DNA from: a virus
Lineage: Duplodnaviria > Caudoviricetes
DNA length: 64,000 nt
Virus record (IMG/VR): IMGVR_UViG_3300005805_000084
Coordinates: 2,120 to 66,119 of that record
Direction: 5' to 3' (one strand)
In this document: one piece after another, positions 5,621-62,240 of the stretch
How positions within the stretch are numbered: position 1 is the stretch's first letter
Layout of the letters: the number at the start of each line of letters is the position of its first letter
Position numbers and translations under genes: made by a program
The notes under the pieces: model-generated
Database searches by the model: none
The model's input: only the letters and a program-made list of their open reading frames with translations
Told to the model about the DNA's origin: nothing

Positions 5621-5635
5621 AGGTGTAATACACCT
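5621..5635. promoter_or_regulatory. Palindromic operator GGTGT-N3-ACACC (site 1)
   Basis: aggtgtaatacacct, intergenic. Confidence 0.8.
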
Positions 5636-5643
5636 TCAGTCCC

Positions 5644-5868
5644 ATGACATCCACACTGACATTCAACCTGCCAGACGATGCCGCCGAGCACCATGCGGCG
5701 ATCCACGGCATGGCCTACCGCCTCGCGCTGTCCGAGATCCGTGAGCAGATCCGACAGAAGCTGAAGTACGGGCACCACTTCCAGTCCCCTGAACTGGCAC
5801 TTGAGTGGGCGCACAAGATGGTCATCGACGTCTGCCAAGACGCTCTGAACCCAGACGAGGTTCCCTGA
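5644..5868 (+). CDS. Hypothetical protein
   Basis: 74-aa ORF after operator. Confidence 0.7.
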   Translation: MTSTLTFNLPDDAAEHHAAIHGMAYRLALSEIREQIRQKLKYGHHFQSPELALEWAHKMVIDVCQDALNPDEVP

Positions 5869-5952
5869 ATCACCGGCCGAGGGTGTCCTCGGCTGTTCAT
5901 GCCTGTCTCCGACGAGTGTCGGCGGCAGGTTTGAGCATTCAAACCAAACACT

Positions 5953-5967
5953 AGGTGTAAAACACCC
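5953..5967. promoter_or_regulatory. Palindromic operator (site 2)
   Basis: aggtgtaaaacaccc, 9 nt before the ATPase ATG. Confidence 0.8.
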
Positions 5968-5976
5968 ATCAGTACC

Positions 5977-6966
5977 ATGAAGTCATCAGAAATCATCAAG
6001 CGCATCGCAACCCTCATGCGTCACCGCAAGCCCTTCCTCCTTACGGGGTCTCCTGGGCTGGGCAAGACCGACTGCATCGTCGAGGCCGCCAAGCAGGCTG
6101 GTCTGCGATGCATCATCAGCCATCCTGTCGTGTCCGACCCGACCGACTACAAGGGCATGCCCGCAATCGTCGACGGCAACGCCCACTTCCTTCCCTTCGG
6201 CGACCTCAACCAACTCATCGAGGCGGACAAGCCCACGCTCTTCTTCCTCGACGACATCGGTCAGGCTCCGACATCGGTTCAGGCCGCACTCATGCAGCTG
6301 ATCCTCTGCCGCAAGGTCAACGGCCACGCCATCAGCGAGCACGTCACCTTCGCGGCTGCCACCAACCGCCGATCGGACAAGGCCGGTGTCGGCACGTTCA
6401 TCACGCCACTGCTCGACCGCTTCGACCAGATCTACGAGCTGGAGTTCGACTCCAGCGACTGGGTCGGCTGGGCCTTGCAGAATGGTCAGCCCGAGCCGCT
6501 CATCGGCTTCGCTCGCTGGCGTCCCTCGCTCATCAGCGACTTCAAGCAGCCCAAGGACGACCTGTCCAAGTGCCCCACGCCTCGGTCGGTTGCCAAGCTG
6601 GGCGACCTCATCAACATCGGACTCGACGACTTCGACACCTACAAGTCGGCGTGCGGCGAGGGGTTCGCCACCGAGTTCGCGGCCTTCCGCAAGACCCGCG
6701 ACCACATGCCGGACATCGACGGCGTGCTCAAGGATCCGGACGGCAGCGACCTGCCCACCCGTCCCGATGTCCTCTACGCCACCGCTGCAGCGCTGGCCTT
6801 CCGCGTCACCGCAGGCAACTTCGGCAACGTCCTGAAGTACTCCGAGCGGATGTCCCCTGAGTTTCGGGTGATGCTGGTCCGCGACTGCATCGCCAAGTCC
6901 AAGTCGCTGGAATCCTCTCCGGCCCTCACCAAGTGGCTCATCAACAACCAATCAGTAATCCTGTGA
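5977..6966 (+). CDS. AAA+ ATPase (MoxR/AAA_5-like)
   Basis: Walker A GSPGLGKT, Walker B LFFLDD, AAATN sensor region. Confidence 0.9.
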   Translation: MKSSEIIKRIATLMRHRKPFLLTGSPGLGKTDCIVEAAKQAGLRCIISHPVVSDPTDYKGMPAIVDGNAHFLPFGDLNQLIEADKPTLFFLDDIGQAPTSVQAALMQLILCRKVNGHAISEHVTFAAATNRRSDKAGVGTFITPLLDRFDQIYELEFDSSDWVGWALQNGQPEPLIGFARWRPSLISDFKQPKDDLSKCPTPRSVAKLGDLINIGLDDFDTYKSACGEGFATEFAAFRKTRDHMPDIDGVLKDPDGSDLPTRPDVLYATAAALAFRVTAGNFGNVLKYSERMSPEFRVMLVRDCIAKSKSLESSPALTKWLINNQSVIL

Positions 6967-8192
6967 AGAAGCATCCCATCATCGACAAGGCGTACGTCGC
7001 ACTCGTCTGCGACCATCCCTTCTGGTCCACGCTACTGCTCAACCTCGAGAAGGTTGTCGACACGTCAGCGACTATGTGGACCGATGGCAAGCGACTCGGG
7101 TACAACCCTGAGTTCTGCGAGAAGATCGGCAAGGAACAGACCATCGGCGTGCTCGCTCACGAGGCTGCCCATGTCTTCCTCAAGCACATGCTGCGGCGTG
7201 GCCAGCGCGATCCGTTCCTGTGGAACATCGCCTGTGACCATGTGGTCAACGCACTGGTACTCGACAGCGGACTCAAGCTGCCAGACGGTGCCGTTCCACC
7301 CATTCGTGGCAAGACCGCTGAGGAAGTCTACGATGGCCTGCTCCAGAAGCAGAAGCAACAGCAGCAGCAACCACAAGGCCAAGGCCAAGGCGAAGGCGGA
7401 GGCCAAAGAGTGCCTCGTCAAAGCCAGCAGCAGGGGCAGGAGCAAGGTGATCAGGAAATCCAAGGCGATCCTCCCAAGAGCGATCAGCAAGGCCAAGGCT
7501 GGGGCGAGGTGCGTGATCAGAAGGGTGAGAACGGTGGCGACCTGTCCGATGCCGAGAAGGGTCAGGCTGAGCGCGACATTGACATCATCATCAAGCAGTC
7601 CGACACCGCTGCCAAGCGTGAGGGCAAGCTGCCAGCGGGTATGGACAGGCTCATCGAGCAGGTGCTCGAACCCAAGATCGACTGGCGTGACGTGCTGCAG
7701 CGGTTCATCGGCGAGCGTGCTCGATCCGACTACTCGTGGCAGCGACCCAACCCACGCTACTTCAATCGTGGCATCGTGCTGCCCAGCCTCGACAGCTATG
7801 GCATCGGCAAGGTGGTGCTGGCTGGTGACACGTCCGGTTCCATGACCAGCGTCCTCCCGCGTGTCTTCTCCGAGATCATCTCCGCTCTGGACGTGTACGA
7901 GGAGCAGCACACCCAAGGCATCACCGTCATGTGGTGCGACACCAAGCTGACCGAGCAGGTGGTCAGCGACATCAGCGACCTCAAGCCTGTAGGCGGTGGC
8001 GGGACCGACTTCGCTCCTGTATTCCGAGCGGTCAACGCACGCCACAACGACGCCAAGGCGGTCGTCTACATCACCGACGGCGAGTGCAGTTCGTTCGGTG
8101 AAGAGCCCTCCTGCCCAGTCCTCTGGGTTCTCACCGAGCGGAACAGCTGCTTCAAGCCGCCCTTCGGCGAAGTCCTCGTGATCAACGAGTGA
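6963..8192 (+). CDS. Metallopeptidase + vWA protein (DUF2201-like)
   Basis: HEAAH, WNIACD, Q/G-rich linker, DTSGS MIDAS, GGGTDF, YITDG; GTG start overlapping upstream TGA. Confidence 0.85.
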   Translation: MKKHPIIDKAYVALVCDHPFWSTLLLNLEKVVDTSATMWTDGKRLGYNPEFCEKIGKEQTIGVLAHEAAHVFLKHMLRRGQRDPFLWNIACDHVVNALVLDSGLKLPDGAVPPIRGKTAEEVYDGLLQKQKQQQQQPQGQGQGEGGGQRVPRQSQQQGQEQGDQEIQGDPPKSDQQGQGWGEVRDQKGENGGDLSDAEKGQAERDIDIIIKQSDTAAKREGKLPAGMDRLIEQVLEPKIDWRDVLQRFIGERARSDYSWQRPNPRYFNRGIVLPSLDSYGIGKVVLAGDTSGSMTSVLPRVFSEIISALDVYEEQHTQGITVMWCDTKLTEQVVSDISDLKPVGGGGTDFAPVFRAVNARHNDAKAVVYITDGECSSFGEEPSCPVLWVLTERNSCFKPPFGEVLVINE

Positions 8193-8285
8193 CCACACAC
8201 ACGATCCATCAGTGCGATGCGCTGGTGGGTCGCAGTGTGGCCATGCGCCACTGTTCAACAACAACACCAAACACACACAAGCAAC

Positions 8286-9131
8286 ATGCAACACGAGAAG
8301 TACCTGCTGGTATCGTTCCGCACCTCCAAGTGGTCGGCCCGTAAGTTCGACGCCAAGGCCACCGAGGAGGTCGCTGCCAACCACAACGCGACTGGTGACA
8401 TCGGTCGCTTCAACAAGCTGCTGCTCAACAAGAGCGACATCAACCCCGTCAACGCCGCCTTCGCTGCCGCACGTCGCCAGCACGACGGGCTGACCCTGCC
8501 TTGGGACGATGACGGTGACCGCCTCCTGCCGTCCGCCCGACTCATGGACTACCGCGCCAAGATGCAGCCGCATCTCACCGAGGTGGACCTGCGTGTGGCC
8601 GACCTGCTCAGCCGCTATCAGGATCTCATCGACACCCGCCGCGTGGAACTCAACGGCCTGTTCGATCCCGCCGACTACCCCAGCGAGCAGCAGATCCGCG
8701 AGAAGTTCGCACACAAGATCGAGATCAAGCCGGTGCCTGCCAGCGAGGCGATCCGATTCGGTGATCCCAACATCGAGCGTGACCTGCGTGAGCAGTACGA
8801 GGAGATGCTCAAGGAGCGCGTCGAGGATGCACAGAGGGAGGTGTGGTACCGCCTGATCGAGCCGATCAAGCGCATGGTGGACATCCTCACCCGTGACGGC
8901 CGCGTCTACGAGTCAACCCACAAGGCCATCCTCGACATCGCCCGTCTGGTTCCGCAGTACAACATCAATGGCGATCCCAAGCTGGACAAGGCTGCCAGCG
9001 ACATCTACGCGCTGATGTCCAAGGTCAACGTCGACATCCTCCGCGACAGCGAGGCGATCCGAACCATCACCGCCGAGGCTGCCGGAGACATCCTTGCTAG
9101 GATGGATTCCAAGTATGCCGGAGCGTTCTGA
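8286..9131 (+). CDS. DUF3150-like protein
   Basis: W.ARK.D...FNKLLL, TLPW, LF...DYP pattern; usual neighbour of the AAA/vWA pair. Confidence 0.65.
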   Translation: MQHEKYLLVSFRTSKWSARKFDAKATEEVAANHNATGDIGRFNKLLLNKSDINPVNAAFAAARRQHDGLTLPWDDDGDRLLPSARLMDYRAKMQPHLTEVDLRVADLLSRYQDLIDTRRVELNGLFDPADYPSEQQIREKFAHKIEIKPVPASEAIRFGDPNIERDLREQYEEMLKERVEDAQREVWYRLIEPIKRMVDILTRDGRVYESTHKAILDIARLVPQYNINGDPKLDKAASDIYALMSKVNVDILRDSEAIRTITAEAAGDILARMDSKYAGAF

Positions 9132-9134
9132 ACC

Positions 9135-10266: not shown

Positions 10267-10586
10267 AGACACACACAGAAGACTACATTCACGACGCGTG
10301 TTTCAACGCAGCGCAGCTTGCGTCACGTGTCGATCAAAGAGCCGGATCGGTACAAGCTTCCGAGGCGATCGCAAGGGCGGCCTTGGGAATGGCAGATGCC
10401 GAGTACACAGACGGATTCAAATGGGGAGAGCGAGCATCATTCGACGACGTTGCTGACAGCGTTGCGGAACAGGTCGCGAACCATTTGAGACAACATGATA
10501 GAACAGAGTCCATCTTTGGCCTAAGGATGAACGCTTACAACACAACCATGGCAGCAGCCGCATTCGGTGTGCTGCACAAGGATTGA
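10263..10586 (+). CDS. Hypothetical protein, paralog of 9931-10266
   Basis: ATG at 10263 overlaps upstream stop. Confidence 0.7.
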   Translation: MKTHTEDYIHDACFNAAQLASRVDQRAGSVQASEAIARAALGMADAEYTDGFKWGERASFDDVADSVAEQVANHLRQHDRTESIFGLRMNAYNTTMAAAAFGVLHKD

Positions 10587-10599
10587 CTTGCAGCACCAA

Positions 10600-10614
10600 T
10601 GGTGTAAAACACCT
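10600..10614. promoter_or_regulatory. Palindromic operator (site 3) over putative -10, with TTGACT -35 upstream
   Basis: ttgact tgcagcaccaatggtg taaaac acct. Confidence 0.8.
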
Positions 10615-10634
10615 CACACACAACCAACAGCACT

Positions 10635-12174: not shown

Positions 12175-12209
12175 AACCAAGAACCAATAACCAAAACCAA
12201 GAACTAACA

Positions 12210-12629: not shown

Positions 12630-12652
12630 ACGGAATTGACACGCACCATGCT

Positions 12653-12667
12653 CGGTGTTAAACACCT
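12653..12667. promoter_or_regulatory. Palindromic operator (site 4) with TTGACA -35 upstream
   Basis: ttgaca cgcaccatgctcggtgt taaaca cct. Confidence 0.8.
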
Positions 12668-12766
12668 CACGACCAATCGGGAGATTGGGAAGTGAACGCA
12701 GTGGTGAGTCTCGTCCGACCGTTTCGGATGGGTGACAGTCGGGAATAGACCGACACCTCTTTCCTC

Positions 12767-13162
12767 TTGAAGGACTTCATCGGAGAAACGCTCGCGGCAT
12801 TCCCACCGAATCTGATCCGAGTTCTGGCACGAACCGGAAGGGGAGCCGCAGCGAGGAACATGACCCACGACGAGGTGGCTCAGCGTTCCGGCCTCAAGAG
12901 ATCCAAGATCCGCAAGTTGTCCGCGCTTCAGTCATGGGACACGGTCGCCATAGCTGATGCGGACGCCTTCCTGAAGGGCTGCAACGTGACGCTCAGATCC
13001 CTATGGAAGCAGCGGGCATTCCTAAGGCGTAGCCTCGACCCAAGGGTGACATCAACCCCGCTGGCCTACGCCGTGCGCGGGAAGCGGGTCCCAAGGCCGC
13101 CATCTGCAGAGGCTTTGGTGCGCGCAGCTTTGAGCCGCTCCTCCCGCCGCGTGTCAGCCTGA
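12767..13162 (+). CDS. XRE-like HTH protein
   Basis: MTHDEVAQRSGLKRSKIRKL; start uncertain (TTG). Confidence 0.55.
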   Translation: MKDFIGETLAAFPPNLIRVLARTGRGAAARNMTHDEVAQRSGLKRSKIRKLSALQSWDTVAIADADAFLKGCNVTLRSLWKQRAFLRRSLDPRVTSTPLAYAVRGKRVPRPPSAEALVRAALSRSSRRVSA

Positions 13163-36399: not shown

Positions 36400-36552
36400 A
36401 TTAGTGTTTTACCTTTCGCGCTCTTTTTACCGAGCAGTGAACCACCTGTATATGGACGCAGGCTCTTTGTTGGCTCAGCACCCAAGTGCGAAAAAGCCAG
36501 CAGATGTAAAACACCCGCTGGCCCGCATTGAAATGCTTGATGAGTTGCCGTT

Positions 36553-46636: not shown

Positions 46637-49600
46637 ATGCCAGTCCCATTTCTCAACAGCGTCAACCTCAACAAGAACGAGGTTCAGAACTTCAAGGTCT
46701 TCAACATCGGGAATGATCCGACCCCGACGCTGACCGCCAACGATGGAGGATACTTCTGGTTCGATAGCACCACTACGCCAACGCCTGTTCTTCGCCTGAA
46801 GTATTGGACCGGCACCGAAGCTCGCACGTTGCTCGACAGTGCCTCGACCACCATCGTCGCTGCGGATCTCTCTGGTGGTGCTGCTGGTAGCCTTCCGTAT
46901 CAGGTCGGCGCTGGAAACACAGACTTCCTTGGCATTGGCGCTGCGAATCAGGTTCTGACGGTTAAAACCGATCTATCCGGTCCTCAATGGACTAGTCAGA
47001 GCAACCTATCTGTCGGCACTGCGACGTGGTTGGCCGGTGGCGCTCAGGGTGACATTCCGGTGCAGTCTTCGGCTGGTCAGACTGGCTTTCTAAACATCGG
47101 CGCTGCCGGTCGCATCCTGACCTCGGACGGCAGCACCCCTGTCTGGTCCGCCACGATTCCTTCCAGCTCTGTCTCTGGCCTAGCCGCCTCGGCTACGACT
47201 GACACGACCAACGCTGCCAACATCACCAGCGGCCTGCTTCCTCTGGCTCGGTTGGAGTTGGCTGACGGCAGCTTCTACGTCGGCAATGGCTCGAATGTCC
47301 CAACGGCGACCGCCAAGAACCTCATACCCATTAGCGGATTTGGTGCGGCCACTGCGGCTGTCGCGATGGGAAACCAGAAGATCACTGGCCTCGCGGATCC
47401 TGTGGATGCCACCGACGCTGCCAATCGCAAGTACGTTGATGAGGTGGCGCAGGGGCTGGACGTCAAGGCGAGCTGTCTTGTTGCAACGATTGCCAACATT
47501 GACCTAAGCGCACCTGGTTCATCCATAGACGGCATTTCTTTGGCCCCTTCTAATCGTGTTCTGGTCAAGGATCAGACTGATAAGAAACAGAACGGCATCT
47601 ACGTCTGGAATGGCGCTGCGGTCGCAATGACCCGCTCGCTGGATGCGGACACCGTGGCCAAGCTGGTTGGCGCATTCACCTTCGTCGAGCAGGGCACCAA
47701 CGCAGATTCCGGATGGGTCTGTCAGGTTGACAGCGGAACCATTGGGTCGGTTGACATTGAGTGGACCAAGTTCAGCCAAGCTGGCTCCTACACCGCAGGC
47801 AACGGCATGGTGCTGTCGGGTGGGGTGTTCCACTTCGCCAAGTCGACCGCCTACACAGAGGGTCAGATTCCGTTCTGCTCAAACACCCCAACCGCGAACA
47901 GGATCGGCTTCTCCTCGAACCTTAGCTGGGACAACTCCAACAACCGCCTAGGCATTGGGACGGCGACGCCTCGGGTTTCATTGGATGTCGCATCTGGAGA
48001 AATTTACAGCAGCGGCCAGATCACTTGGGGCGGCAGTAGCCCAACGGCAAATCAAGGATTCCTGTCCTATACTGGCGGAAATGCCGCAATAGGATCTGCC
48101 GGAGCAACTGCGCTGCTGCTTTACACCAACTCATCCGAACGCCTCCGCATCGCCTCCGACGGCGTATGCACATGGAGCAACGTTGGTGGGGTGGCTGGCA
48201 CCGCAATGACCCTGAATGCGACGGGGTTGGGGGTGGGGGCTACGCCGTCCGCTGCGATCCATTCGGCAAAAGCTGCTGCCGCGAATCCCACTGGAGGCTC
48301 TGCCGCTGGTGCTGGCCTCTACGTCTCCAATGTCAATCCACTCTACGGAATGATGTTTGGTGTGAATGGAGGTGGCGTCGGATGGATTCAGCAGCAACGG
48401 AGTGACACCAACACCCAATACGATCTCTCGCTTCAGCCTCTCGGCGGCAACGTCGGCATCGGGACCGCGACGCCGCTCTACACATTAGACGTCGCTGGAG
48501 ACACGCGGATTGGCGGCACCGGCCTTGCTTATGGACGGCTGACGGTGAACAAATCGACTAGTGGTTCGACACTGAACCTCAGTCTCGCTGGGACATCTGG
48601 CTACACGGAGCTGATGTTCACGAACTACAACGACAACACCGGAGCTTCTGGTTGGACATCCTTCATTCGTAGCAACACCAACGCGGCATCCAACTACGCC
48701 TCGGATCTGGTGTTCGGTACATCGAGCCCAACTTTAGGCGCTCCGGTCCCGAGGATGACGCTGGATCACAACGGAAACCTTGGGTTGGGAGTGACGCCTA
48801 GTGCTTGGGGATCTTCATACAAGGCTATCCAAATTGGTCAAGTTGGGTCGATTAACTATAAAAACTTCACCATTGCGATTGGAGGAAACTACTACAACGA
48901 CGGAACGAATGATGTCACTCTGATCAACGGTTATCGCTCAAAATACGAGCAGAACCTAAGCAATGGCACACACATTTGGTACCAAGCTGGCATTGGCACT
49001 GGCAACGTAAGCTGGAACCAGTCAATGACCCTCGACGCCTCGGGGAATCTGGGCATCGGGACGGCGTCGCCATCAAATAGAGTTGAAATTCGAGGCGCAG
49101 GTCAAGCAACGGCTTCTGTTGCGGATTCCGGAGATGGATCGGCACTGATGCTGTCGGATACCGGATTTGGTTCAAACGCTGGCGGCCTGCTGCTCTTCGG
49201 ATATAACGTCCAGAACGGATACAAAGCTCAAGTCGGCATTAAATTGGTCGGTATTGATGGATTTAATAACGGACGTGGAGACATGGTGTTTGTCACCAGA
49301 ACCTCCACTTCTGCGACGACTTTGACCGAAAAGATGCGGCTGGACTCCTCCGGCAACCTTGGCATCGGGACGGCGTCGCCGAATACGAATCTCACAATAG
49401 GAAATGATGGAAATGGAAGCGCCACAGTAAAACTTGGATTCTCGACCGCATATGCCGAACGAGGTTCTGTAAGTATGGCAGGGAATACCGGCGAGTTGAG
49501 GCTGACGGCAGGTTTTAGCGGATACGGTGGTTTTACTACTTTTTACACGAACGGCTCGTTGGCAGCCACGCTCTCGTCTGACGGCAACCTTGGGTTGGGC

Positions 49601-51256
49601 GTCACTCCCGCTTCAACTGTCCGCTTGGATGTCGCGCAAACTTCTCGGATCTCTTTCTTCGTCAATGGCGCGGACACGGAGATGCGGTCGACGAATCTCG
49701 CTGGATCCGCATTCGCCAAGGGCACGTTCAACGCAACCAGCTTTGACTGGGGGCTTTCCAATTCGTTTGGGAAGATGGTCCTCGACGCATCGGGGAGGCT
49801 GCTTGTAGGGACCACCAACACATATGATTTCAACGGGCAGGCGAACTTGGTTGTCGCTGGCACCGCAAACAATTCGACGATTACGTTAGCGTCCACAGGA
49901 ATCGGATACATTGCATTCGCGGATGGCACGAGTGGCACGAGTCGATATGCCGGACGCATCGACTACAATCACTCGACAGACTCCATGGTGTTCCACACGG
50001 CAGCAGTGGACCGCCTCACGCTAAACGCCTCCGGCAACCTTGGCTTGGCCGCCACTCCCAGTGCGTGGATTTCCGCATATAGAGCGATTGAAATTGGGAC
50101 TACCACGGGTTTGTACGGGCGCGCAGACAGCACGATGGAGCTTTCCCTTGCGCTGAACTGCTATCGAGACAACAGCGGTGCATGGGTTTATCGGAACAAC
50201 GGAACGGCTGCGCTTTATAACCAAAATGTAGGGTATCATTATTGGTACAGCGCAACCGCCGGAACGGCTACAAACAACATCACTTTCGGCGACCCAAAGA
50301 TGACCCTCGACGCCTCGGGGAATCTGCTTGTTGGCGTCACCAGTGCAACAGGATCTGGAAAGATTCAGACGGCCAGCTCAATACGCATCAGTGATTCTGG
50401 ATCTGAAACCAATGCATTGCTAATTTCAAGTAGTGCAACTGCATCGACGATCGAGACTAGATATGGGACTCCAATCATTTTTGGCACCAATGCTGCCGAG
50501 CGTGCCCGTCTCACTTCATCTGGGGTCCTTCTTTTCTCCACCAACGGCACCGCCTCCGCACCAACCATAGCCAACTCGGACAATCCCGACACCGGCCTCT
50601 ACTGGCCCACTGATGCAGACACCCTCGCGCTGGCGGTGGGCGGGAGTGATGCGGTGTATATTGATGCGAATAGGAACGTTGGATTCGGATGCACTCCATC
50701 GGCTCCGATTACAGTAAAATCTCGCAGCTCGGACAACCTTAGCATTCGGATCCTCCAATCGAGTGGTGGCGCTGGGAATATCCAGTGGACCGACGATCCT
50801 GTAAGTGTTCAGTGGGGTGCGATTTCTGTCACAAGCTCGGTCTTTAGCCTCATTTCAAACAGTGTTCTGACGTTTTCCACAAACGCCACCGAACGCCTCC
50901 GAATCAAGTCCACCGGCCAGATCAACTTTGCCAGCATTGCTCCTGACCCCACTGGTGCGGCTGGCGATCTGTACTACTCCACCGGCAATGTGCTCAAGAT
51001 GCACAACGGCACCGCGTGGCAGCAGTTGAGCCGGAAGTACACTGTGGCGCTGAACGATGGAAGCGTGACTGTGGCGGGCAATGCCTATACGATCACTCAC
51101 AACATGGGCAGCCAAGACATCACTGTCAGTGTCCGGCGTACCACTGATAACGCCGTAGTGTTGACTGATGTGTCGATGCCCAATAACACGACTGCAATCA
51201 TCACATTCGCTGCGGCCATCACCGCGTCGCAGTACGTTGTCACCGTCATCGGCTAA
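46637..51256 (+). CDS. Long tail fibre (1539 aa), modular repeats
   Basis: ITGLADP..ATDAAN..YVD head, about 10 (E)RL/MTL...GNLG(I/L)G(T/V)..P repeats. Confidence 0.85.
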   Translation: MPVPFLNSVNLNKNEVQNFKVFNIGNDPTPTLTANDGGYFWFDSTTTPTPVLRLKYWTGTEARTLLDSASTTIVAADLSGGAAGSLPYQVGAGNTDFLGIGAANQVLTVKTDLSGPQWTSQSNLSVGTATWLAGGAQGDIPVQSSAGQTGFLNIGAAGRILTSDGSTPVWSATIPSSSVSGLAASATTDTTNAANITSGLLPLARLELADGSFYVGNGSNVPTATAKNLIPISGFGAATAAVAMGNQKITGLADPVDATDAANRKYVDEVAQGLDVKASCLVATIANIDLSAPGSSIDGISLAPSNRVLVKDQTDKKQNGIYVWNGAAVAMTRSLDADTVAKLVGAFTFVEQGTNADSGWVCQVDSGTIGSVDIEWTKFSQAGSYTAGNGMVLSGGVFHFAKSTAYTEGQIPFCSNTPTANRIGFSSNLSWDNSNNRLGIGTATPRVSLDVASGEIYSSGQITWGGSSPTANQGFLSYTGGNAAIGSAGATALLLYTNSSERLRIASDGVCTWSNVGGVAGTAMTLNATGLGVGATPSAAIHSAKAAAANPTGGSAAGAGLYVSNVNPLYGMMFGVNGGGVGWIQQQRSDTNTQYDLSLQPLGGNVGIGTATPLYTLDVAGDTRIGGTGLAYGRLTVNKSTSGSTLNLSLAGTSGYTELMFTNYNDNTGASGWTSFIRSNTNAASNYASDLVFGTSSPTLGAPVPRMTLDHNGNLGLGVTPSAWGSSYKAIQIGQVGSINYKNFTIAIGGNYYNDGTNDVTLINGYRSKYEQNLSNGTHIWYQAGIGTGNVSWNQSMTLDASGNLGIGTASPSNRVEIRGAGQATASVADSGDGSALMLSDTGFGSNAGGLLLFGYNVQNGYKAQVGIKLVGIDGFNNGRGDMVFVTRTSTSATTLTEKMRLDSSGNLGIGTASPNTNLTIGNDGNGSATVKLGFSTAYAERGSVSMAGNTGELRLTAGFSGYGGFTTFYTNGSLAATLSSDGNLGLGVTPASTVRLDVAQTSRISFFVNGADTEMRSTNLAGSAFAKGTFNATSFDWGLSNSFGKMVLDASGRLLVGTTNTYDFNGQANLVVAGTANNSTITLASTGIGYIAFADGTSGTSRYAGRIDYNHSTDSMVFHTAAVDRLTLNASGNLGLAATPSAWISAYRAIEIGTTTGLYGRADSTMELSLALNCYRDNSGAWVYRNNGTAALYNQNVGYHYWYSATAGTATNNITFGDPKMTLDASGNLLVGVTSATGSGKIQTASSIRISDSGSETNALLISSSATASTIETRYGTPIIFGTNAAERARLTSSGVLLFSTNGTASAPTIANSDNPDTGLYWPTDADTLALAVGGSDAVYIDANRNVGFGCTPSAPITVKSRSSDNLSIRILQSSGGAGNIQWTDDPVSVQWGAISVTSSVFSLISNSVLTFSTNATERLRIKSTGQINFASIAPDPTGAAGDLYYSTGNVLKMHNGTAWQQLSRKYTVALNDGSVTVAGNAYTITHNMGSQDITVSVRRTTDNAVVLTDVSMPNNTTAIITFAAAITASQYVVTVIG

Positions 51257-52442: not shown

Positions 52443-52748
52443 ATGGATTCAAGTGCCGATGCCGTGCATCAAACGATGCGCGAAAGGGGAACCGTCTACG
52501 GAGAACCCCATCACTCGCACAAGAACATTGGTCTGGAGTGGACTGGAATCCTCCAGCAGTTCTACGGCATCGAGCTCCCTTCTCCAATCCCAGCCCACGT
52601 CGTGGAGCTGATGATGGCGAGCTTCAAGATCCACAGGGCGGTGAGGGTCTTCCACAAGGACAACTACATCGACTGCCGCGCCTACCTTGAGTTCGCAGAG
52701 CACGGCCACGAGCACCCGAACGAGCCTTTCGTTCGACACAAGTTGTAG
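52443..52748 (+). CDS. DUF6378-like protein
   Basis: RERG..YG.P...H..IG..W...L...V.LMM...KI.R. Confidence 0.65.
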   Translation: MDSSADAVHQTMRERGTVYGEPHHSHKNIGLEWTGILQQFYGIELPSPIPAHVVELMMASFKIHRAVRVFHKDNYIDCRAYLEFAEHGHEHPNEPFVRHKL

Positions 52749-52809
52749 GCCCCCGCTTACAACTTCCTCTCCCTAGAGCTGCAAGCCGTTGGGCATCAAA
52801 TGCCTGATC

Positions 52810-52859
52810 GCGGTTTTGTAAACCGTCGGTCGTCGGTTCGAGTCCGACAACTGGCTCCA
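52810..52859 (+). mobile_element. attP core: 3' half of tRNA-Thr(UGU)
   Basis: Anticodon arm GCGGT-TTTGTAA-ACCGT, T arm gtcggTTCGAGTccgac, 3' CCA; no matching 5' acceptor strand upstream; 166 nt before integrase. Confidence 0.85.
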
Positions 52860-52946
52860 GCCTCAATCACAAGGAAAGCCCCTCTATCCTTGTGGATTCT
52901 TGATGCCTCCGATGGTGCAGCTTGGTGCAGCTTGGTGCATCTATCG

Positions 52947-52974
52947 TTGACATTTGTGAGCGATCTCTTACAAC
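52947..52974 (+). promoter_or_regulatory. Putative integrase promoter overlapped by CTTACAAC repeats
   Basis: TTGACA-16 nt-TACAAC. Confidence 0.5.
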
Positions 52975-53025
52975 AGACTTACAACGAGTCGACGGTTTTC
53001 CGAACCGCTGTCGACCAACGAAGCT

Positions 53026-54156
53026 GTGAAGGTCACGCTCAGGCGCATCAAAGACGGTGGCAACCCTGTCTGGCAGGTGCGGTATTGGCAGGGCGGACGG
53101 TACGTTCGGAAGCAGTTCAGGGATCGCGGGGCCGCTGAGAGCCACCGAGGGCTGCTGGAGCAGGAGTCCGATAGCGTCAGGCGTGAGGAGCTGCCCCCTT
53201 CCGAGAAGCTGTCCCTTCTGTCCGCTCACAGGAGGGCCATTGCTGGCGGCTACAGCCTCGCACAGGCGTGCGACGTGTATGAGCGCACCGTGGGTAGCAG
53301 CCTGAAGAGAATCGGGCTTGGTGAGGCGATCTGTGAGTTCCTAGCAGCCAAGGCATCGAAGGGGCTGCGACCCAGATCGCTTGGAGATTTGGAAGTGAGA
53401 CTCAACAGGTTCAAGGTGAAGGTCGGAGAGGCCGTTCAGGTCTCGTCCATACCGACGTCTAGGATTGAATCCTTCATGGAGCGTGGCTGGGAGGCTCAGA
53501 CTCGGATCAACTGGCTTGTCGTTCTCGGGAACTTCTTCCGGTGGTGCGTCCGAAGGAGGTACGCCCTTGCGAATCCGGTGTCTGAAATCGAACGCCCTCT
53601 TCTCGAGCCAGAGCAGCCAAGGCCGCTGACCGTGGAACAATGCTCCAAGATTCTTTTGGATACCTGTTCGATGAAGCCGCAGTTGATCCCGTATGTATCC
53701 ATAAGCCTGTTCGCTGGCCTGAGGAATAGCGAGCTGTCGCGGCTGACGTGGAACGACGTTGACCTCAATCAGGGGGTGATCCGCGTTGAGGCTGGCAAGG
53801 CCAAGACCAGATCCAGACGCGTCGTCACGATCCAGACCAACCTCAAGGAGTGGCTCGCGATGGGCGGCAGGCTGCCCGCAAGGGTGACCAAGGCCGAGTG
53901 GATCAGGATCAGGCCCGAGGGCTACAAGGTGGACCAGATGCGCAGGACCTTCTGCACCTACCATCTTGCGGCGTTTGGATCTGCGGCAAAGACCGCACTC
54001 GAGGCCGGTCACAGGGAAGCGGTGCTGTTCCGGCACTACAGGGGAATTACCGACGAGGCCTACGCGCTAAGATTCTGGGATCTTTCACCCAAGAAGGTAC
54101 TAGGCCTGCTTCGTGGCGATGCATCAGAGAACTCCCATGAAGCACCACACCAGTAG
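53026..54156 (+). CDS. int: Phage integrase (tyrosine recombinase with arm-binding N-domain)
   Basis: FAGLRNSEL, DQMRR, AGH...FRHY; adjacent to tRNA-derived attP. Confidence 0.9.
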   Translation: MKVTLRRIKDGGNPVWQVRYWQGGRYVRKQFRDRGAAESHRGLLEQESDSVRREELPPSEKLSLLSAHRRAIAGGYSLAQACDVYERTVGSSLKRIGLGEAICEFLAAKASKGLRPRSLGDLEVRLNRFKVKVGEAVQVSSIPTSRIESFMERGWEAQTRINWLVVLGNFFRWCVRRRYALANPVSEIERPLLEPEQPRPLTVEQCSKILLDTCSMKPQLIPYVSISLFAGLRNSELSRLTWNDVDLNQGVIRVEAGKAKTRSRRVVTIQTNLKEWLAMGGRLPARVTKAEWIRIRPEGYKVDQMRRTFCTYHLAAFGSAAKTALEAGHREAVLFRHYRGITDEAYALRFWDLSPKKVLGLLRGDASENSHEAPHQ

Positions 54157-54166
54157 CAACCTAGAC

Positions 54167-54181
54167 AGGTGTTGTACACCA
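54167..54181. promoter_or_regulatory. Palindromic operator (site 5)
   Basis: aggtgttgtacacca. Confidence 0.75.
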
Positions 54182-54194
54182 ACCCACTCACCAC

Positions 54195-54374
54195 ATGCCC
54201 AACCAAAGAGATCCAGACAAGCGGCTGCTCGCCACTTGGCTGAACAAGGAAGAGCTCAAGCGCTACAAGCAGCTGGCCAAGGAGGCTGGTATTTCGCTGA
54301 GTGACTATGTCAAAAACGCCCTCGAGAAGTTCGACACGACGCCACCGCGTCCAGCTCGCGCTAAGCGTCGCTGA
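54195..54374 (+). CDS. Ribbon-helix-helix regulator 1 (59 aa)
   Basis: KRLLATWLNKEELKRYKQLAKEAGISLSDYVKNAL; not in ORF track. Confidence 0.7.
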   Translation: MPNQRDPDKRLLATWLNKEELKRYKQLAKEAGISLSDYVKNALEKFDTTPPRPARAKRR

Positions 54375-54477
54375 CTGCAAGAAGGTTCGCGCCAGGGCCA
54401 AGCGCCTAGGCCTTTCCACGTCCGCCTACATTCGACTCGCGCTGCACGTGTGCAGCAACCGCAAACACGGTTCTTGA
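54307..54477 (+). CDS. Ribbon-helix-helix regulator 2 (56 aa), overlapping RHH1 in another frame
   Basis: RHRVQLALSVADCKKVRARAKRLGLSTSAYIRLAL; not in ORF track. Confidence 0.6.
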   Translation: MSKTPSRSSTRRHRVQLALSVADCKKVRARAKRLGLSTSAYIRLALHVCSNRKHGS

Positions 54478-54481
54478 CGTC

Positions 54482-54496
54482 AGGTGTAAAACACCT
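54482..54496. promoter_or_regulatory. Palindromic operator (site 6) abutting the Xis-like ATG
   Basis: aggtgtaaaacacct immediately followed by ATG. Confidence 0.8.
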
Positions 54497-54736
54497 ATGC
54501 TGCTCACCTATTCCGAGGCCGCGAAGGCGCTGAGGGTGTCCGTGCGGACGATCAAGTCTTGGGCCAGAGCCCGATGCTTCCCTGTCGTCCGGTTGTCACA
54601 GCGAACCGTCAGAATCAGGCAGCGCGACCTCGATCGCTTCGTTGAGAAGCGTTGTAGATACACACATGTCCACTCCCACGTTCACAAAGGCCACTCGGAA
54701 GAAAGTCTTCCTGAAGCTGGCGGTCACCGGCCCTAG
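54497..54736 (+). CDS. Excisionase-like HTH protein
   Basis: LLTYSEAAKALRVSVRTIKSW...RIRQRDLDRF. Confidence 0.8.
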   Translation: MLLTYSEAAKALRVSVRTIKSWARARCFPVVRLSQRTVRIRQRDLDRFVEKRCRYTHVHSHVHKGHSEESLPEAGGHRP

Positions 54737-57305: not shown

Positions 57306-57309
57306 ATCC

Positions 57310-58379: not shown

Positions 58380-59692
58380 GCGATGAGAACAGCCCGCTCT
58401 ACGCAGAGTCCGATGAGCTGGGCGTCCTAGGTGCCTGCCTGATCGGAGGCATGGACTCCACCGCCGAAGCCATGCCGCTCTACAGGGCCGGAGCCATCTT
58501 CAGTGCCGAATTACAGGAGATCTTTCAGGTAATAGCCGCTCTGGAGTCAGAAGGGGTGCCGCCAGACATGCTCGCCGTGGCGCGGAAATGGCCCGCCATT
58601 CATTCCAAGAAGCCGATCCCTAGCCTGACCCTCAACCGAGCCATAGAGGCCTGTCCTAGCGCCGCCAACCTCGAGTTCCATGCCGTCGGGGTCAGGGAGG
58701 CCTTCCGCAGGAGGCGGATCCGAGAGATCGGCATCAAGCTTTCGGCCGATTCCACCAATCCGGTGAAGCCGGTGGAGGAGGCGATCTCTGAGATGGAGGC
58801 TGGGCTGATCAGCTGTGACCAGTCCCAGAGCAACCTCAAGTCCTCCAAGGCGGTCATGTTGGAGCTCATCGACGACCTTCAGGAGCGTTCCAAGCGCAAT
58901 GGGGATATCTCAGGGATATCCACAGGTTATCGGAAGCTGGACCGGATGACCGACGGGCTGCAGCCAGGGGAGATGTTCCTCGTGGCGGCTAGGCCTTCCA
59001 TCGGAAAGACCGCGCTGGCCACCTCCATGGTCTGCTCGATGTGCATCGGGGCCAAGGTGCCGACGCTCTTTGTGACCTGCGAGATGTCCGAGCCAGCCAT
59101 AGCGCGGCGCATCATGGCTTCGGTAGCCTCGGTCTCCATGGGATCGCTCAAGCGGGGCAACCTGACCCCGCCCGAGTACCAAAGGGTCTTCGCGGCGAAC
59201 ACCAAGATCGCCAATGCACCACTCCACTACTGCAATGCCGTGTCAGGAATGACCTCGGCTCAGGTGGGGGCTGAGATCCGCAGGGCAGTCCGGAAGCATG
59301 GCGTGAAGGTTGTGTTCGTCGACTACCTGCAGAAGGTGCTGCCGACCAAGCGACACGAGAAGCGCACCTACGAGGTGGCCGAGGTCTCCTCCAAGCTCAA
59401 GGCGATCGCGGACTCCTGCAAGGTGTCGGTGGTGGCTCTGGCCCAGCTCAACCGCGAATCAGAGAAGGAGAAGGGGAGGGTGCCGCGCCTATCGGATCTG
59501 GCGGACTCTGGACAGATCGAGCGTGATGCCGATACGGTCTGTCTTCTGACACGAAACAGAGAGGAATCTCGTGGCGAGGCTCAGCTGCTCGTCGCCAAGC
59601 AAAGAGACGGCGAATGCGGATCTGTTGGGCTCTGGTATGAGGGGCCATTCTGCCGCTTCGACGACAATCCAGAACTCAAGGAAGTACCATGA
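58376..59692 (+). CDS. dnaB: Replicative DNA helicase
   Basis: AARPSIGKT, EMS, VFVDYLQ, LAQLNR, DLADSGQIERDAD. Confidence 0.95.
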   Translation: MSDENSPLYAESDELGVLGACLIGGMDSTAEAMPLYRAGAIFSAELQEIFQVIAALESEGVPPDMLAVARKWPAIHSKKPIPSLTLNRAIEACPSAANLEFHAVGVREAFRRRRIREIGIKLSADSTNPVKPVEEAISEMEAGLISCDQSQSNLKSSKAVMLELIDDLQERSKRNGDISGISTGYRKLDRMTDGLQPGEMFLVAARPSIGKTALATSMVCSMCIGAKVPTLFVTCEMSEPAIARRIMASVASVSMGSLKRGNLTPPEYQRVFAANTKIANAPLHYCNAVSGMTSAQVGAEIRRAVRKHGVKVVFVDYLQKVLPTKRHEKRTYEVAEVSSKLKAIADSCKVSVVALAQLNRESEKEKGRVPRLSDLADSGQIERDADTVCLLTRNREESRGEAQLLVAKQRDGECGSVGLWYEGPFCRFDDNPELKEVP

Positions 59693-60438
59693 AGAGACTG
59701 CTTAGTTACCAGACACGAGTGTTTAACTGGCAACGCGATGTTGCTGGCCAACCAGTGACCACAATCCGAACCCAGCGTGACCCAGCCTTCTACGACAAGC
59801 AGCTGGGCTACGTGTACAGTGAGTGGTTCGACGAGTACCTTCCGCACTCCATAGACTACTCGAAGGCGCTCGCCGAGAACGCGCAGGCCCTCCTGCTACG
59901 AACTGCGGTCAGTGCCGATTCGCTCATCGAGTCGTCCAAGCGCATCGAGGGCATGAGGATCGACCTTGCCGACGACGTGGGCGATGTGGCCTTCACGCTG
60001 CTGGGTCTTCTGAATGCGGCGGCCCTTACCGTGAGCAACACGCATGGAGGATTGCCCACATTCACGAGCCTCGCATCGGAAGAGCTCGCGGTCTCAACGG
60101 ATCTCTCTGAGCTCTCCAAGGGGGCTTCATTCGACACCGCTGGACGCGTGGAAAGCTCACTCCTCAGCCTGATGAGGATCTCCGACCTGATCGGGTTCTC
60201 GTTCTACGAAGCGCTGGAGGCGGTGTGCGATTCCAACGACACCAAGCTCTGGACCGAGGAGGAGGTCTCCCACAACATGGACAAGGCATCCGAGAACGGC
60301 TGGGTGATCACGCGTCTTCATGGACGCACCGGACGCTGCTTCAGGGTCAATGCCGTGAACATGAAGCTCATCAAGAGCCCGTCCTTCACGCCTCCTGATC
60401 TGAAGCGTGCAGTTTTCGGATACACGATGTTGACGTAA
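59689..60438 (+). CDS. MazG/PRA-PH-like nucleotide pyrophosphohydrolase
   Basis: EWFDEY...DLADDVGDV...V.DSN.TK. Confidence 0.6.
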   Translation: MKRLLSYQTRVFNWQRDVAGQPVTTIRTQRDPAFYDKQLGYVYSEWFDEYLPHSIDYSKALAENAQALLLRTAVSADSLIESSKRIEGMRIDLADDVGDVAFTLLGLLNAAALTVSNTHGGLPTFTSLASEELAVSTDLSELSKGASFDTAGRVESSLLSLMRISDLIGFSFYEALEAVCDSNDTKLWTEEEVSHNMDKASENGWVITRLHGRTGRCFRVNAVNMKLIKSPSFTPPDLKRAVFGYTMLT

Positions 60439-60444
60439 TCCAAC

Positions 60445-60459
60445 AGGTGTTTTACACCT
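60445..60459. promoter_or_regulatory. Palindromic operator (site 7), TTGACG upstream
   Basis: aggtgttttacacct. Confidence 0.8.
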
Positions 60460-60468
60460 CAATCACAC

Positions 60469-60675
60469 ATGAGCGAAATCGTATCGAAGGAAGAGCTCAA
60501 TGAAGCTCTGCATGGAGACAAGAAGGTGGAGTCGTGTCCGGTTCACGGAGATGAGCCTCCCGCAATCAACGTGGGTGGACTTCTGATGGCTAAGCATGAC
60601 CTTGATGGCCGCTGGTGCATCTGCTGCCTGTTGGAGTTCGCAAAGAAACACGGATGCCACCGCCTCACAGCATGA
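60469..60675 (+). CDS. Small Cys/His protein
   Basis: CPVH...WCICC. Confidence 0.6.
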   Translation: MSEIVSKEELNEALHGDKKVESCPVHGDEPPAINVGGLLMAKHDLDGRWCICCLLEFAKKHGCHRLTA

Positions 60676-60866
60676 AGAAATACAGAAACAAGTCCAAGCA
60701 CAGCACAGTCGTCACATTCGTCTGCAACGCGGAGCATCGCGTCGCCGAGATGAAGTCTCGGGTCGTTATCTACGAGAGGAACGGCCGGTACTACTCGCGC
60801 AACTCGGTGGAGTTCTATGCCAAGTTCGAGCCGATCGGCGACGATTCGTCGGGACATGACGGTTGA
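60672..60866 (+). CDS. DUF1653-like small protein
   Basis: KYRNK...A....V.IY....Y.R...EF..KF. Confidence 0.55.
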   Translation: MKKYRNKSKHSTVVTFVCNAEHRVAEMKSRVVIYERNGRYYSRNSVEFYAKFEPIGDDSSGHDG

Positions 60867-60877
60867 TTTTGGATGCT

Positions 60878-60892
60878 AGGTGTTTAACACCT
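60878..60892. promoter_or_regulatory. Palindromic operator (site 8)
   Basis: aggtgtttaacacct, 5 nt before the RHH3 ATG. Confidence 0.8.
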
Positions 60893-60897
60893 TGGGC

Positions 60898-61140
60898 ATG
60901 TCGAACGCCAGAGCAGAAGGAAGGACACTGTTAGCACTATGGGTATCACAGCAGCAGATGAGACTGATAGACAGGCAGGCAACCTCTCAGGGCCTCAATC
61001 GAAGCCAATGGGTTCGATTGATGTTGCTCGGAGAAGGTCCTCAAAACACCTTGCCTACATCACGGTCGGCAAAGACCAAGTCAGGGTATGGTTCAAGGAT
61101 GGGGCGCTCTGCTTCAGGCCGAAGCACAAGCGCAAGATAG
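60898..61140 (+). CDS. Ribbon-helix-helix regulator 3
   Basis: RTLLALWVSQQQMRLIDRQATSQGLNRSQWVRLML. Confidence 0.65.
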   Translation: MSNARAEGRTLLALWVSQQQMRLIDRQATSQGLNRSQWVRLMLLGEGPQNTLPTSRSAKTKSGYGSRMGRSASGRSTSAR

Positions 61141-61214
61141 AGAAGCTCAGCCTTGGGGCGGCTTACGACGTGGCCTGCGGACAACTACAATTCTTCTATG
61201 GGAAAGATCATTGA
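61008..61214 (+). CDS. Hypothetical protein overlapping RHH3 tail; start uncertain
   Basis: YITVGKDQVRVWFKDGALCFRPK looks globular. Confidence 0.45.
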   Translation: MGSIDVARRRSSKHLAYITVGKDQVRVWFKDGALCFRPKHKRKIEKLSLGAAYDVACGQLQFFYGKDH

Positions 61215-61446
61215 ATCGATGACAAGGGTCCCGCTGAGTGGCGGGCGGGTGGTACGTGTCTGGCGCGAGGAGACCAAGCTCAAGCCGGAGTACGAGAACA
61301 ACGACGTGGTGCTGTCCATCATCGCCAACAGCCAGATGGATCAGGACAAGCTCGCGGAGCACATCTGCAAGCTGGAGCGGATCAACGCGGTTGAGGTCAT
61401 CGACGCCAAGGGCAACGGCGTGGTGTACTACCCCAGCTGGCCATGA
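61198..61446 (+). CDS. Hypothetical protein
   Basis: Typical codons, coupled stop/start. Confidence 0.7.
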   Translation: MGKIIESMTRVPLSGGRVVRVWREETKLKPEYENNDVVLSIIANSQMDQDKLAEHICKLERINAVEVIDAKGNGVVYYPSWP

Positions 61447-61673
61447 GCGAACCCCTCCAGTGGGAGGACGTCCTCTCAAAGGGAAACGAGGCTGGTGTCC
61501 CAACCTTCACCACGATCCTGTCTGCGCTCGTTCTGGAGAACGGCGGGTCCATGTCGGTCTCCGTGATGAGCCTCAGGGAGCTCGTGAAGGGCTCCTCCTC
61601 GTTGAGGCTTGTGGCTGAGGTGGACTCCGGACAGCTGGTGGTCTCGCTGATGCAGGACGGATCGGACAACTGA
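61443..61673 (+). CDS. Hypothetical protein
   Basis: Coupled ORF. Confidence 0.65.
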   Translation: MSEPLQWEDVLSKGNEAGVPTFTTILSALVLENGGSMSVSVMSLRELVKGSSSLRLVAEVDSGQLVVSLMQDGSDN

Positions 61674-62215
61674 TGGGCTTCAGCGCAACCACAGAGAGCG
61701 GCAAGGCGTACATCAAGCATGGGTGGGACGCCTGCGCTGCCGTGGAGCGTCACATCATCGAGGGAAAGATCTCCGTCAACATCTTCGGATTTCCGGACGA
61801 GGAACCCAGTCGGATGGACGCCATCATGGTGGATAGGGCCACCAAGAGGATCTTCGGAACCCTAGAGATCAAGTCCCGCAATCTGACCGAGGAAGCCTTC
61901 TCGAAGCGTTACAACATGGAGCTCTTGGTCAGCTTCGACAAACTGCAGAACTCGTACTGGGTCGTGAACCGATTCAGGGTGCCCCACTGGCTGATGATCT
62001 ACTGCATCCCGAGCGGGGTCGCCTTCCTGAAGAAGGTGTTCACGCTGGGGAACGGCAGGGACTTCAGGCCTCTGGTCGAGTCCAACTTCAGGACCAAGAC
62101 CGAGATGTCACTGGTCACGCACAACAGCAGCGAACACAGGGAGGAGGCGCTCTCCTACGTCGACATGCGCGGCGCGGAGCGTGTCCACGTGAAAAGAAAC
62201 GAACTTCCGTTTTGA
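61673..62215 (+). CDS. PD-(D/E)xK nuclease-like protein
   Basis: RMDAIM...LEIKSRN. Confidence 0.6.
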   Translation: MGFSATTESGKAYIKHGWDACAAVERHIIEGKISVNIFGFPDEEPSRMDAIMVDRATKRIFGTLEIKSRNLTEEAFSKRYNMELLVSFDKLQNSYWVVNRFRVPHWLMIYCIPSGVAFLKKVFTLGNGRDFRPLVESNFRTKTEMSLVTHNSSEHREEALSYVDMRGAERVHVKRNELPF

Positions 62216-62225
62216 CTTTGTCACT

Positions 62226-62240
62226 GGGTGTAATACACCT
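62226..62240. promoter_or_regulatory. Palindromic operator (site 9), TTGACT upstream
   Basis: gggtgtaatacacct. Confidence 0.8.

Follow-up and report, generated by a model that had tools for sequence, protein, structure and literature searches.

The C1 repressor of phage P1 is autoregulated and acts, together with the accessory factors Coi, Lxc and Bof, at more than a dozen dispersed, asymmetric 17-bp operators, and the c repressor of the Streptomyces phage phiC31 works through 17-bp conserved inverted repeats (CIRs) at early promoters that are not sigma-70-like. Other described regulators are the XRE-type repressors paired with an M78 metalloprotease, such as ImmR/ImmA of ICEBs1 and DdrO/IrrE of Deinococcus, and the ribbon-helix-helix (RHH) repressors Arc, Mnt (P22 immI) and CopG (pMV158), which have one or two operators each. 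In mycobacteriophage L5 (cluster A), the gp71 repressor is served by ∼30 dispersed 13-bp stoperators (PMC9283540, PMC6550527), and in D29 part of the immunity/integration region has been lost and the sites have been kept (PMC5712189). Here, we describe a short palindrome, GGTGT-N3-ACACC, that recurs before the early genes of an uncultured phage from a freshwater (lake) lineage. The stretch analyzed, referred to as the window, is 64,000 nucleotides long and comprises bases 2120-66119 of the 66,119-bp IMG/VR record IMGVR_UViG_3300005805_000084, a genome with direct terminal repeats. Judged by their sequence and placement, the palindromes are probably duplex-DNA operators for one two-fold-symmetric, phage-encoded protein that would repress the early units.

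Number and setting of the palindrome

A pattern scan of the window revealed nine perfect copies of GGTGT-N3-ACACC, with starts at 5622, 5954, 10601, 12654, 54168, 54483, 60446, 60879 and 62227 (sites 1-9, respectively). The chance expectation is 0.01 sites, and none of 100 shuffled sequences reached nine. All nine copies listed in the initial annotation were recovered, each starting one base after the position given there, but the count for the genome as a whole is 10 perfect sites in 66 kb because a tenth copy lies at genome positions 906-918, in the 2.1 kb outside the window. The description of the sites as entirely intergenic is correct for the nine copies in the window and for nine of ten genome-wide, the tenth lying within a conserved small open reading frame (ORF), where it is read as ..LAVFNTSA.. 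Placement shortly before + strand genes was likewise confirmed, the gaps between the palindrome and the next + strand start being 9, 10, 21, 100, 14, 1, 10, 6 and 11 nt for sites 1-9, that is, 1-21 nt except for the 100 nt that follow the site at 12654. The same scan found no perfect copy in the late/structural block at 13-53 kb.

Inspection of the ten sites reveals that 29 of the 30 spacer positions are A or T (P = 3e-10), in agreement with the AT-rich spacers noted earlier. The spacers show no strand consistency, both AAA and TTT being present, and the dyad continues into the flanks, with a preceding A at 6 of 10 sites and a following T at 7 of 10. Six copies with one mismatch were also found. 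The copy at 36503, the sole one that looks intergenic, belongs to a true terminator as its inner stem and is unconserved in a relative; according to the ORF table, those at 4426, 42360 and 61422 are inside predicted ORFs and those at 49285 and 49987 lie between the limits of ORF 46637-51256. An intrinsic-terminator role for the perfect sites was considered and rejected because no T-run follows the palindrome at any of the nine window sites and the pattern of a GC-rich stem with a T-run is not seen. A full-text literature search for the motif returned nothing of relevance to phages.

The phage has a G+C content (GC) of 58% and gave no cultured-phage match by megablast or tblastn. Its + strand block, which extends from 54 kb across the genome ends as far as 13 kb, carries early, recombination and replication genes. 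These include an integrase gene (int, 53026-54156), two overlapping RHH genes and a xis-like gene of the HTH_17 type, together with genes for an AAA_24 ATPase, an exonuclease VIII-like protein, DnaB helicase, a MoxR-type AAA and VWA pair, and SSB; downstream of site 3 lies the gene for a second tyrosine recombinase. Structural genes occupy 13-53 kb and include a 3415-amino acid ORF without a family match. The large terminase subunit, TerL, has a counterpart at 77% identity on a contig binned with an Armatimonadetes metagenome-assembled genome (MAG).

Promoter-like boxes and conservation among relatives

A −35-like hexamer, TTGAC(N) or TTGATT, precedes six of the sites at a distance of 3-12 nt. 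TTGAC is present within 25 nt upstream of five of the ten sites, as compared with 0.19 expected (P < 5e-5), and the box stands out as a conserved island in alignments of relatives. At site 3 (10583-10613, + strand), TTGACT at 10583-10588 is separated by 12 nt from the palindrome at 10601-10613, which is followed by ATG 10635. Site 4 (12636-12666, + strand) has the same spacing between TTGACA at 12636-12641 and the palindrome at 12654-12666 and heads a conserved leader of ∼100 nt and an XRE-like gene. At site 7 (60430-60458, + strand), TTGACG at 60430-60435 lies 10 nt before the palindrome at 60446-60458, and ATG 60469 of a Cys-rich 68-amino acid ORF follows; in relatives, box and palindrome are conserved islands amid variable flanks. 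Site 8 (60863-60891, + strand) comprises TTGATT at 60863-60868, 10 nt and the palindrome at 60879-60891, and site 9 (62212-62239, + strand) comprises TTGACT at 62212-62217, 9 nt and the palindrome at 62227-62239, with ATG 62251 of a two-helix-turn-helix (HTH) protein thereafter. At site 6 (54474-54501, + strand), TTGACG at 54474-54479 is only 3 nt from the palindrome at 54483-54495, which abuts TATGCT at 54496-54501. This palindrome exactly occupies the spacer of TTGACG-16-TATGCT, the sole canonical sigma-70-type −35/−10 pair in the 64 kb; its counterpart in relatives reads TTGAC[GT]-ctg-palindrome-TAGTGT.

The four −35-like hexamers named in the initial annotation (sites 3, 4, 7 and 8) were thus all found, and two more are added by TTGACT at 62212 and TTGACG at 54474. 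The accompanying statement that a TA-rich hexamer follows at 16-17 nt holds only loosely, given the 3-12 nt between box and palindrome and the poor match of the −10 candidates. If a spacer of 16-18 nt is assumed, the −10 hexamers sit in the right half of the palindrome as TAAAAC, TAAACA, TACACC and TAACAC. The variable distance between the −35-like box and the palindrome argues that the operator has been laid over promoters and is not itself a promoter element. A Shine-Dalgarno-like motif is present at 15 of 66 predicted genes, leaders being short and A/C-rich, and several operator-linked genes would receive leaders of 0-5 nt if the putative promoters are real.

No −35 was seen at the remaining window sites. 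Site 1 (5622-5634, GGTGTAATACACC) begins 7 nt past the stop of ORF 5240-5614 and ends 9 nt before ATG 5644; its orthologue in the relative G002 has the spacer ATT and just 4 nt to the ATG. Site 2 (5954-5966, GGTGTAAAACACC) lies 10 nt before ATG 5977 of a MoxR-type AAA/VWA operon and is preceded by the sole strong upstream hairpin among the sites (−27.8 kcal/mol). Site 5 (54168-54180, GGTGTTGTACACC) is found 11 nt past the int stop and 14 nt before the RHH gene at 54195, and is confined to genomes that carry the int module.

Nine related IMG/VR contigs (80-100% identity; DnaB 86-100% identical) carry the motif at orthologous places. Among them are G001, a complete relative of 63,356 bp with nine sites, and G002, which is ∼80% identical and has eight sites on 35 kb. 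In the comparisons below, the window phage is written W. At orthologous places, the ten arm bases are unchanged across the close relatives and the sequence between and after the elements drifts. Spacers change within the A/T alphabet at site 8 (TTA in W, ATA in G002-type relatives), site 10 (TTA/TTT) and site 1 (AAT/ATT). Invariant arms around a variable but A/T-constrained centre are consistent with a dyad-symmetric protein that reads duplex DNA through contacts to the arms.

Three relatives, G001, G003 and G005, lack the segment corresponding to window positions 52742-54660, which holds a tRNA-like segment, int, site 5, the two RHH genes, site 6 and the xis-like gene. They have instead a stretch of ∼80 bp with a single site before the AAA_24 gene, the junction being identical in both lineages, and every other site is retained. 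Given that W is 94-96% identical to G001 and both of these are 80-89% identical to G003, the simplest history is one gain of the module in the W lineage, in which the int module would have brought, or landed on, the same operator. Some residual chance is left to the opposite course, a D29-like loss of an immunity module with the sites retained. Because the module-free relatives keep their sites, the regulon exists independently of the int module, and the circuit is not tied to this integrase. The proposal that lysogeny is kept by one repressor acting at these sites is weakened by the same three genomes. The operator regulon is unchanged by presence or absence of the module, which has thus joined a circuit that already existed by having the same operator, and an int module with a shared operator offers an example of how mosaic phage modules stay compatible. 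Beside int, positions 52781-52859 resemble the 3′ half of a tRNA and may include an attP core; ARAGORN found no whole tRNA, and the best match of the half-tRNA to tRNAs of the phylum of the Armatimonadetes MAG, the one phylum compared, was ≤92%.

Candidate binding proteins and proposed circuit

Three regulator-like genes, at 12767, 60898 and 62251, are present in all relatives, each behind a site of its own (4, 8 and 9, respectively), an arrangement that implies autoregulation. The gene at 12767-13162 (+ strand; candidate A) encodes an XRE/CI-like HTH protein of 131 amino acids that matches Pfam HTH_31 below cut-off (E 0.004) and has HTH_31, HTH_3 and CI-repressor as its nearest ESM clusters. 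Its AlphaFold2 model (pLDDT 59 overall, 70-85 in the core) gave XRE proteins, namely C.Esp1396I, DdrO and SinR, as top fold matches, all weak (E 0.1-1). The protein is conserved in relatives and has one 70%-identical homologue, P0003. Among XRE proteins, the C proteins recognise palindromes whose centre is 3 bp of A/T, so the geometry of the sites fits this candidate, which we put forward tentatively as the binder.

Two features of the surrounding DNA were observed in passing. The leader at 12667-12766, which has no Rfam match, contains a hairpin at ∼12673-12688 with compensatory changes among relatives (CCAATC-GGGA-GATTGG versus GTCGTC-GGGA-GACGAC) and a block of ∼64 nt (∼12700-12763) that is 100% identical between genomes ∼80% identical elsewhere. 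The 3′ ends of the XRE-like gene and the convergent 3415-amino acid ORF share ∼170 nt at 12993-13162, a stretch of unusually high conservation.

The gene at 60898-61140 (+ strand; candidate B), whose ATG lies 6 nt after site 8, encodes a predicted RHH protein of 80 amino acids. It matches the Pfam NikA-like family at E 0.0011; across the three RHH paralogues of the window, E values range from 0.0011 to 1e-5, all below cut-off. Changes among relatives fall at 26 third codon positions against 10 and 8 at the other two, indicating a frame under purifying selection; W and the G002 type agree throughout residues 1-18 (arm and strand) and differ at 12 of the next 62. The monomer model has two confident helices and no strand, and its weak fold matches are all RHH proteins (including 1ea4 and 1myl). 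The dyad overlies the presumed promoter region of this gene, site 8 beginning 10 nt after TTGATT, and CopG, an RHH protein, binds a 13-bp symmetric element. The strand RTLLALWV of this protein resembles KRLLATWL of the module RHH protein encoded at 54195, a likeness that would explain why the module RHH genes sit between two sites. As the possible binder, this protein has the same tentative standing as the XRE-like one. Over its low-complexity gene tail, at 61040-61214, a second conserved frame (..YITVGKDQVRVWFKDG..) was noted, in DNA that is near-invariant among relatives.

The third gene, at 62251-62577 (+ strand; candidate C), specifies a 108-amino acid protein with two HTH-like segments. 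Its weak PHROG and Pfam matches are HTH_7 and a late activator, and ESM comparison places it beside HTH_23, HTH_28 and Mor-like clusters, so that it looks more like a Mor-type or late activator. The module RHH genes, which overlap at 54195-54374 and 54307-54477 (+ strand), give NikA-like and RHH_1 matches and are bracketed by sites 5 and 6. These two RHH proteins, which had been included among the three RHH candidates of the initial annotation, and the xis-like HTH protein are unlikely to be the general binder because module-free relatives keep the regulon. It is doubtful that some other phage protein fills this role, and a host factor is doubtful to the same degree. When the small early proteins were scanned against Pfam and PHROG, no homologue of gp71 or C1 appeared, in a survey that included no search aimed at gp71 or C1 themselves.

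A divergent CI/Cro-type HTH pair had been described as not evident. A divergent control region does exist: an 82-amino acid ORF with a HELLH motif (1098-1346, − strand), which matches Pfam Peptidase_M78 below cut-off (E 0.0016) and is 93% identical in the G002 type, faces a conserved promoter at 1452. The product is possibly an ImmA/IrrE-type metalloprotease, that is, an anti-repressor, paired with the XRE-like protein; the usual arrangement of a Peptidase_M78 gene next to its repressor gene is not seen, the two being ∼11.5 kb apart. The ORF is the lone − strand ORF of the early half and abuts a strong + strand terminator at 1068-1096. Across from it, positions 1407-1486 hold a palindrome-free, conserved sigma-70-like promoter (TTGACA 1452-1457, 18-19 nt, TTATGTAT) that heads a structured non-coding RNA and an early operon. 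Three tandem 8-9-bp repeats (CTACCATTc, CTACTATT, CTACTATT), unique in the window, precede this promoter and could be a second operator type.

From the observed excess of the palindrome over chance, the conservation of its arms and its position relative to the −35-like boxes, we infer protein binding, repression and the identity of the candidate binders. The putative protein would read the arms a-GGTGT/ACACC-t and require of the 3-bp centre only that it be A/T-rich and easily deformed. At six sites, the bound protein would cover spacer, −10 region or start point and so exclude host RNA polymerase; at sites 1, 2, 5 and the tenth, it could block read-through as a roadblock or act at unrecognised promoters. 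The + strand units for early functions, recombination and replication would thereby be repressed in concert. Upkeep of a silent prophage and a Cro-like lytic shut-off of early genes fit this scheme equally well. The idea of one regulator at many dispersed early promoters, as first proposed from the sequence, is therefore retained as the best reading, on account of the invariant arms, the variable A/T spacer, the conserved TTGAC boxes and the core-promoter position.

Several observations weigh against repression by a phage protein. No recognisable −35 is present at four of the ten sites (1, 2, 5 and the intragenic tenth), so that the description of the sites as promoters stands for six. The −10 candidates inside the palindromes keep TA but all lack the conserved final T, and the promoters are for that reason putative. 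Three positions in the recognition helix of the XRE-like protein have changed between W and the G002 type, although the operators of the two are identical, and the RHH protein encoded at 60898 has no homologue in a set of 5.8 billion proteins. Queries with DnaB, TerL, RHH, XRE and HTH proteins against viral, metagenome and genome contigs returned no distant relative with an altered operator; these scans gave either close relatives with identical arms or distant, motif-free phages (such as L014, DnaB 46%). Finally, the core palindrome is also present in a group of unrelated phages that have no protein in common with the window phage, which leaves room for a host factor.

Alternative explanations and comparison with described systems

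The unrelated group came to light in an exact-word scan of IMG/VR, which led to contig IMGVR_UViG_3300031998_000411 (L168/L169; 35 kb, GC 40%), where 21 kb contain 29 perfect sites. When the dyad was extended to TTAGGTGT-N3-ACACCTAA, a further scan yielded ∼15 contigs, including complete genomes of 182,655 bp (G311; L228-L237) and 181,407 bp. These ∼180-kb phages (GC 35-40%, strong Shine-Dalgarno sequences) contain the core 20-36 times, embedded in a dyad of 19-21 bp, TTTAGGTGTT(A/T)AACACCTAAA. Each small early gene is laid out as terminator, tTTAGGTGTT(A/T)AACACCTAAa, 10 nt, TTGACA, 17 nt, TATAAT and an AAGGAGG ribosome-binding site (RBS), which centres the dyad near −52, on the opposite side of the −35 from that in the window phage. 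All copies are confined to an early region of ∼20 kb spanning the genome ends, where they form cassette-like repeats. A protein common to the two groups was not detected by tblastn, six-frame blastp, hidden Markov model searches or XRE and RHH queries, which gave noise and one weak HTH match (E 0.003); PF21983 has three matches in the window phage genome and none in the ∼180-kb phages.

Given that multi-copy dyads are common and that IMG/VR is very large, an independent regulon with a shared 5-6-bp arm and 3-bp gap is plausible, and the recurrence is most likely coincidence, through independent use; a host factor common to both groups is less likely. It is quite improbable that a-GGTGT-WWW-ACACC-t is a shared early-promoter tag, read across unrelated phages and phyla by one conserved factor (a host protein or an undetectably short module), which would in that case act over the −10 here and at about −52 in the ∼180-kb phages. 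Among more distant phages, L024 and L018 (DnaB 27-28%) have dyads of their own, GTGTCCG-N3-CGGACAC (L024; 3-4 copies) and CGTGTC-N7-GACACG (3 copies). A MoxR-type AAA ATPase gene followed by a metallopeptidase-like/VWA gene stands behind the operator both in the window (5977-8192) and in L168 (17187-19852), with no detectable sequence similarity between the two pairs.

The poor −10 hexamers also bear on positive control, in which an activator, encoded by the phage or delivered with the virion, would bind the palindrome and turn the promoters on. The missing final T of TACACC, TAACAC, TAAAAC and TAAACA and the lack of any canonical promoter in the window besides site 6 would suit such an activator, as would the fixed position of the palindrome 10 nt upstream of the −35 in the ∼180-kb phages, a geometry typical of activators and UP elements. 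Here, however, the palindrome overlaps or follows the −10 region at a variable 3-12 nt from the box, where known activators fail; at site 6 it takes up the whole spacer of a good promoter, and four sites have no −35, making activation unlikely. The further proposal that a conserved host DNA-binding protein reads the palindrome and is exploited by several unrelated phages at their early promoters draws on the recurrence of the 13-bp core with its A/T flanks, 20-36 times per genome, in phages that share no detectable protein. We consider it rather improbable, since GC (58% as compared with 35-40%) and RBS use (Shine-Dalgarno-like motifs at 15 of 66 genes as compared with a strong AAGGAGG) differ and the hosts of the two groups are probably far apart. 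The opposite placement relative to the −35 points the same way. No copy of the motif is present in five bacterial genomes of the candidate host phylum (20 Mb), one of them the MAG with a related phage contig, and palindromes of other sequence are common in multiple copies in phage contigs, so that one shared 5-bp arm may be coincidence.

A nucleic-acid hairpin was considered in two forms, as a DNA hairpin promoter of the N4 type for an RNA polymerase within the 3415-amino acid virion protein and as an RNA stem-loop for processing or stability. N4 early promoters have a 5-bp stem and a 3-nt loop, the geometry seen here, a virion protein of 3415 amino acids is encoded, and the genome is rich in structured RNAs. 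Rfam at gathering threshold gave no match in the window. A hairpin chosen for pairing would be expected to vary its stem between sites; the stems here are invariant, without covariation, and the loops are unconserved on either strand, the template-strand centres of the ten sites being T, T, T, T, C, T, A, A, T and A, with no conserved central purine. The giant protein has no Pfam or PHROG match, no DxDGD motif and no tblastn match in cultured phages, and the N4-like reading was rejected for want of a polymerase signature and of conserved loops. With a −35 box 9-12 nt upstream, transcripts from the putative promoters would start after the palindrome, which makes an RNA hairpin unlikely, as does the missing T-run; taken together, the two forms are very unlikely. 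Equally far-fetched is a role as recombination or shuffling joints of mobile gene cassettes, akin to PeSL or integron-like sites. The right end of the int/RHH/RHH/xis-like indel does coincide with a site, each small early gene of the ∼180-kb phages is flanked by one, and the gene behind site 3 encodes a second tyrosine recombinase. Nevertheless, the 13-15 bp common to the copies are too short for homologous exchange, the 3-bp centre is unlike the cores used by tyrosine or serine recombinases, no site is present at the left end of the indel (52742), and the relatives are otherwise collinear.

Repression by a symmetric phage protein at dispersed operators can be set beside several described systems. 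The XRE-like protein of ∼130 amino acids, the possible HExxH protease and a palindrome on scattered promoters, as in the DdrO regulon, recall ImmR/ImmA and DdrO/IrrE, but the protease match is below the Pfam cut-off and the genes are not adjacent. With Arc, Mnt and CopG, the locus shares a small predicted RHH gene directly behind a presumed 13-17-bp dyad operator that overlaps a promoter, as well as paralogous strands that are similar; it differs in having ten operators and in an RHH assignment that derives from sub-threshold matches. PeSL of T4-type phages differ in that a whole cassette of ∼50-100 bp is repeated there, whereas 13-15 bp and the TTGAC box are common to the copies here. Identical inverted repeats at many early promoters of a temperate phage, with one direction of transcription, are also a property of phiC31, from which the window phage is set apart by the length of the CIRs, the promoter type and the repressor family. 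As in P1, a single repressor would govern many scattered promoters in place of one divergent CI/Cro switch, and autoregulation is proposed; the P1 operators are asymmetric and used with accessory factors, in contrast to the perfect dyad here.

The likeness to L5 lies in one short site repeated many times in short intergenic gaps, at some places over an early promoter and at others between genes. L5 stoperators stop read-through between genes (PMC9283540), and sites 1, 2, 5 and 10 could likewise be roadblocks. Relatives that lack part of the immunity/integration region retain their sites, as does D29 (PMC5712189). Each stoperator is asymmetric, depends on its orientation and is bound by a monomer, whereas the sites of the window phage are perfect dyads with an A/T centre and spacers that are not strand-consistent, and they number ten, all in the early half. 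What emerges is a clean regulon map, with one operator at ten sites and two concrete repressor candidates, for a freshwater lineage that has no cultured relatives; the proposed circuit is a familiar kind of phage control, and this instance of it belongs with the dispersed-operator systems.

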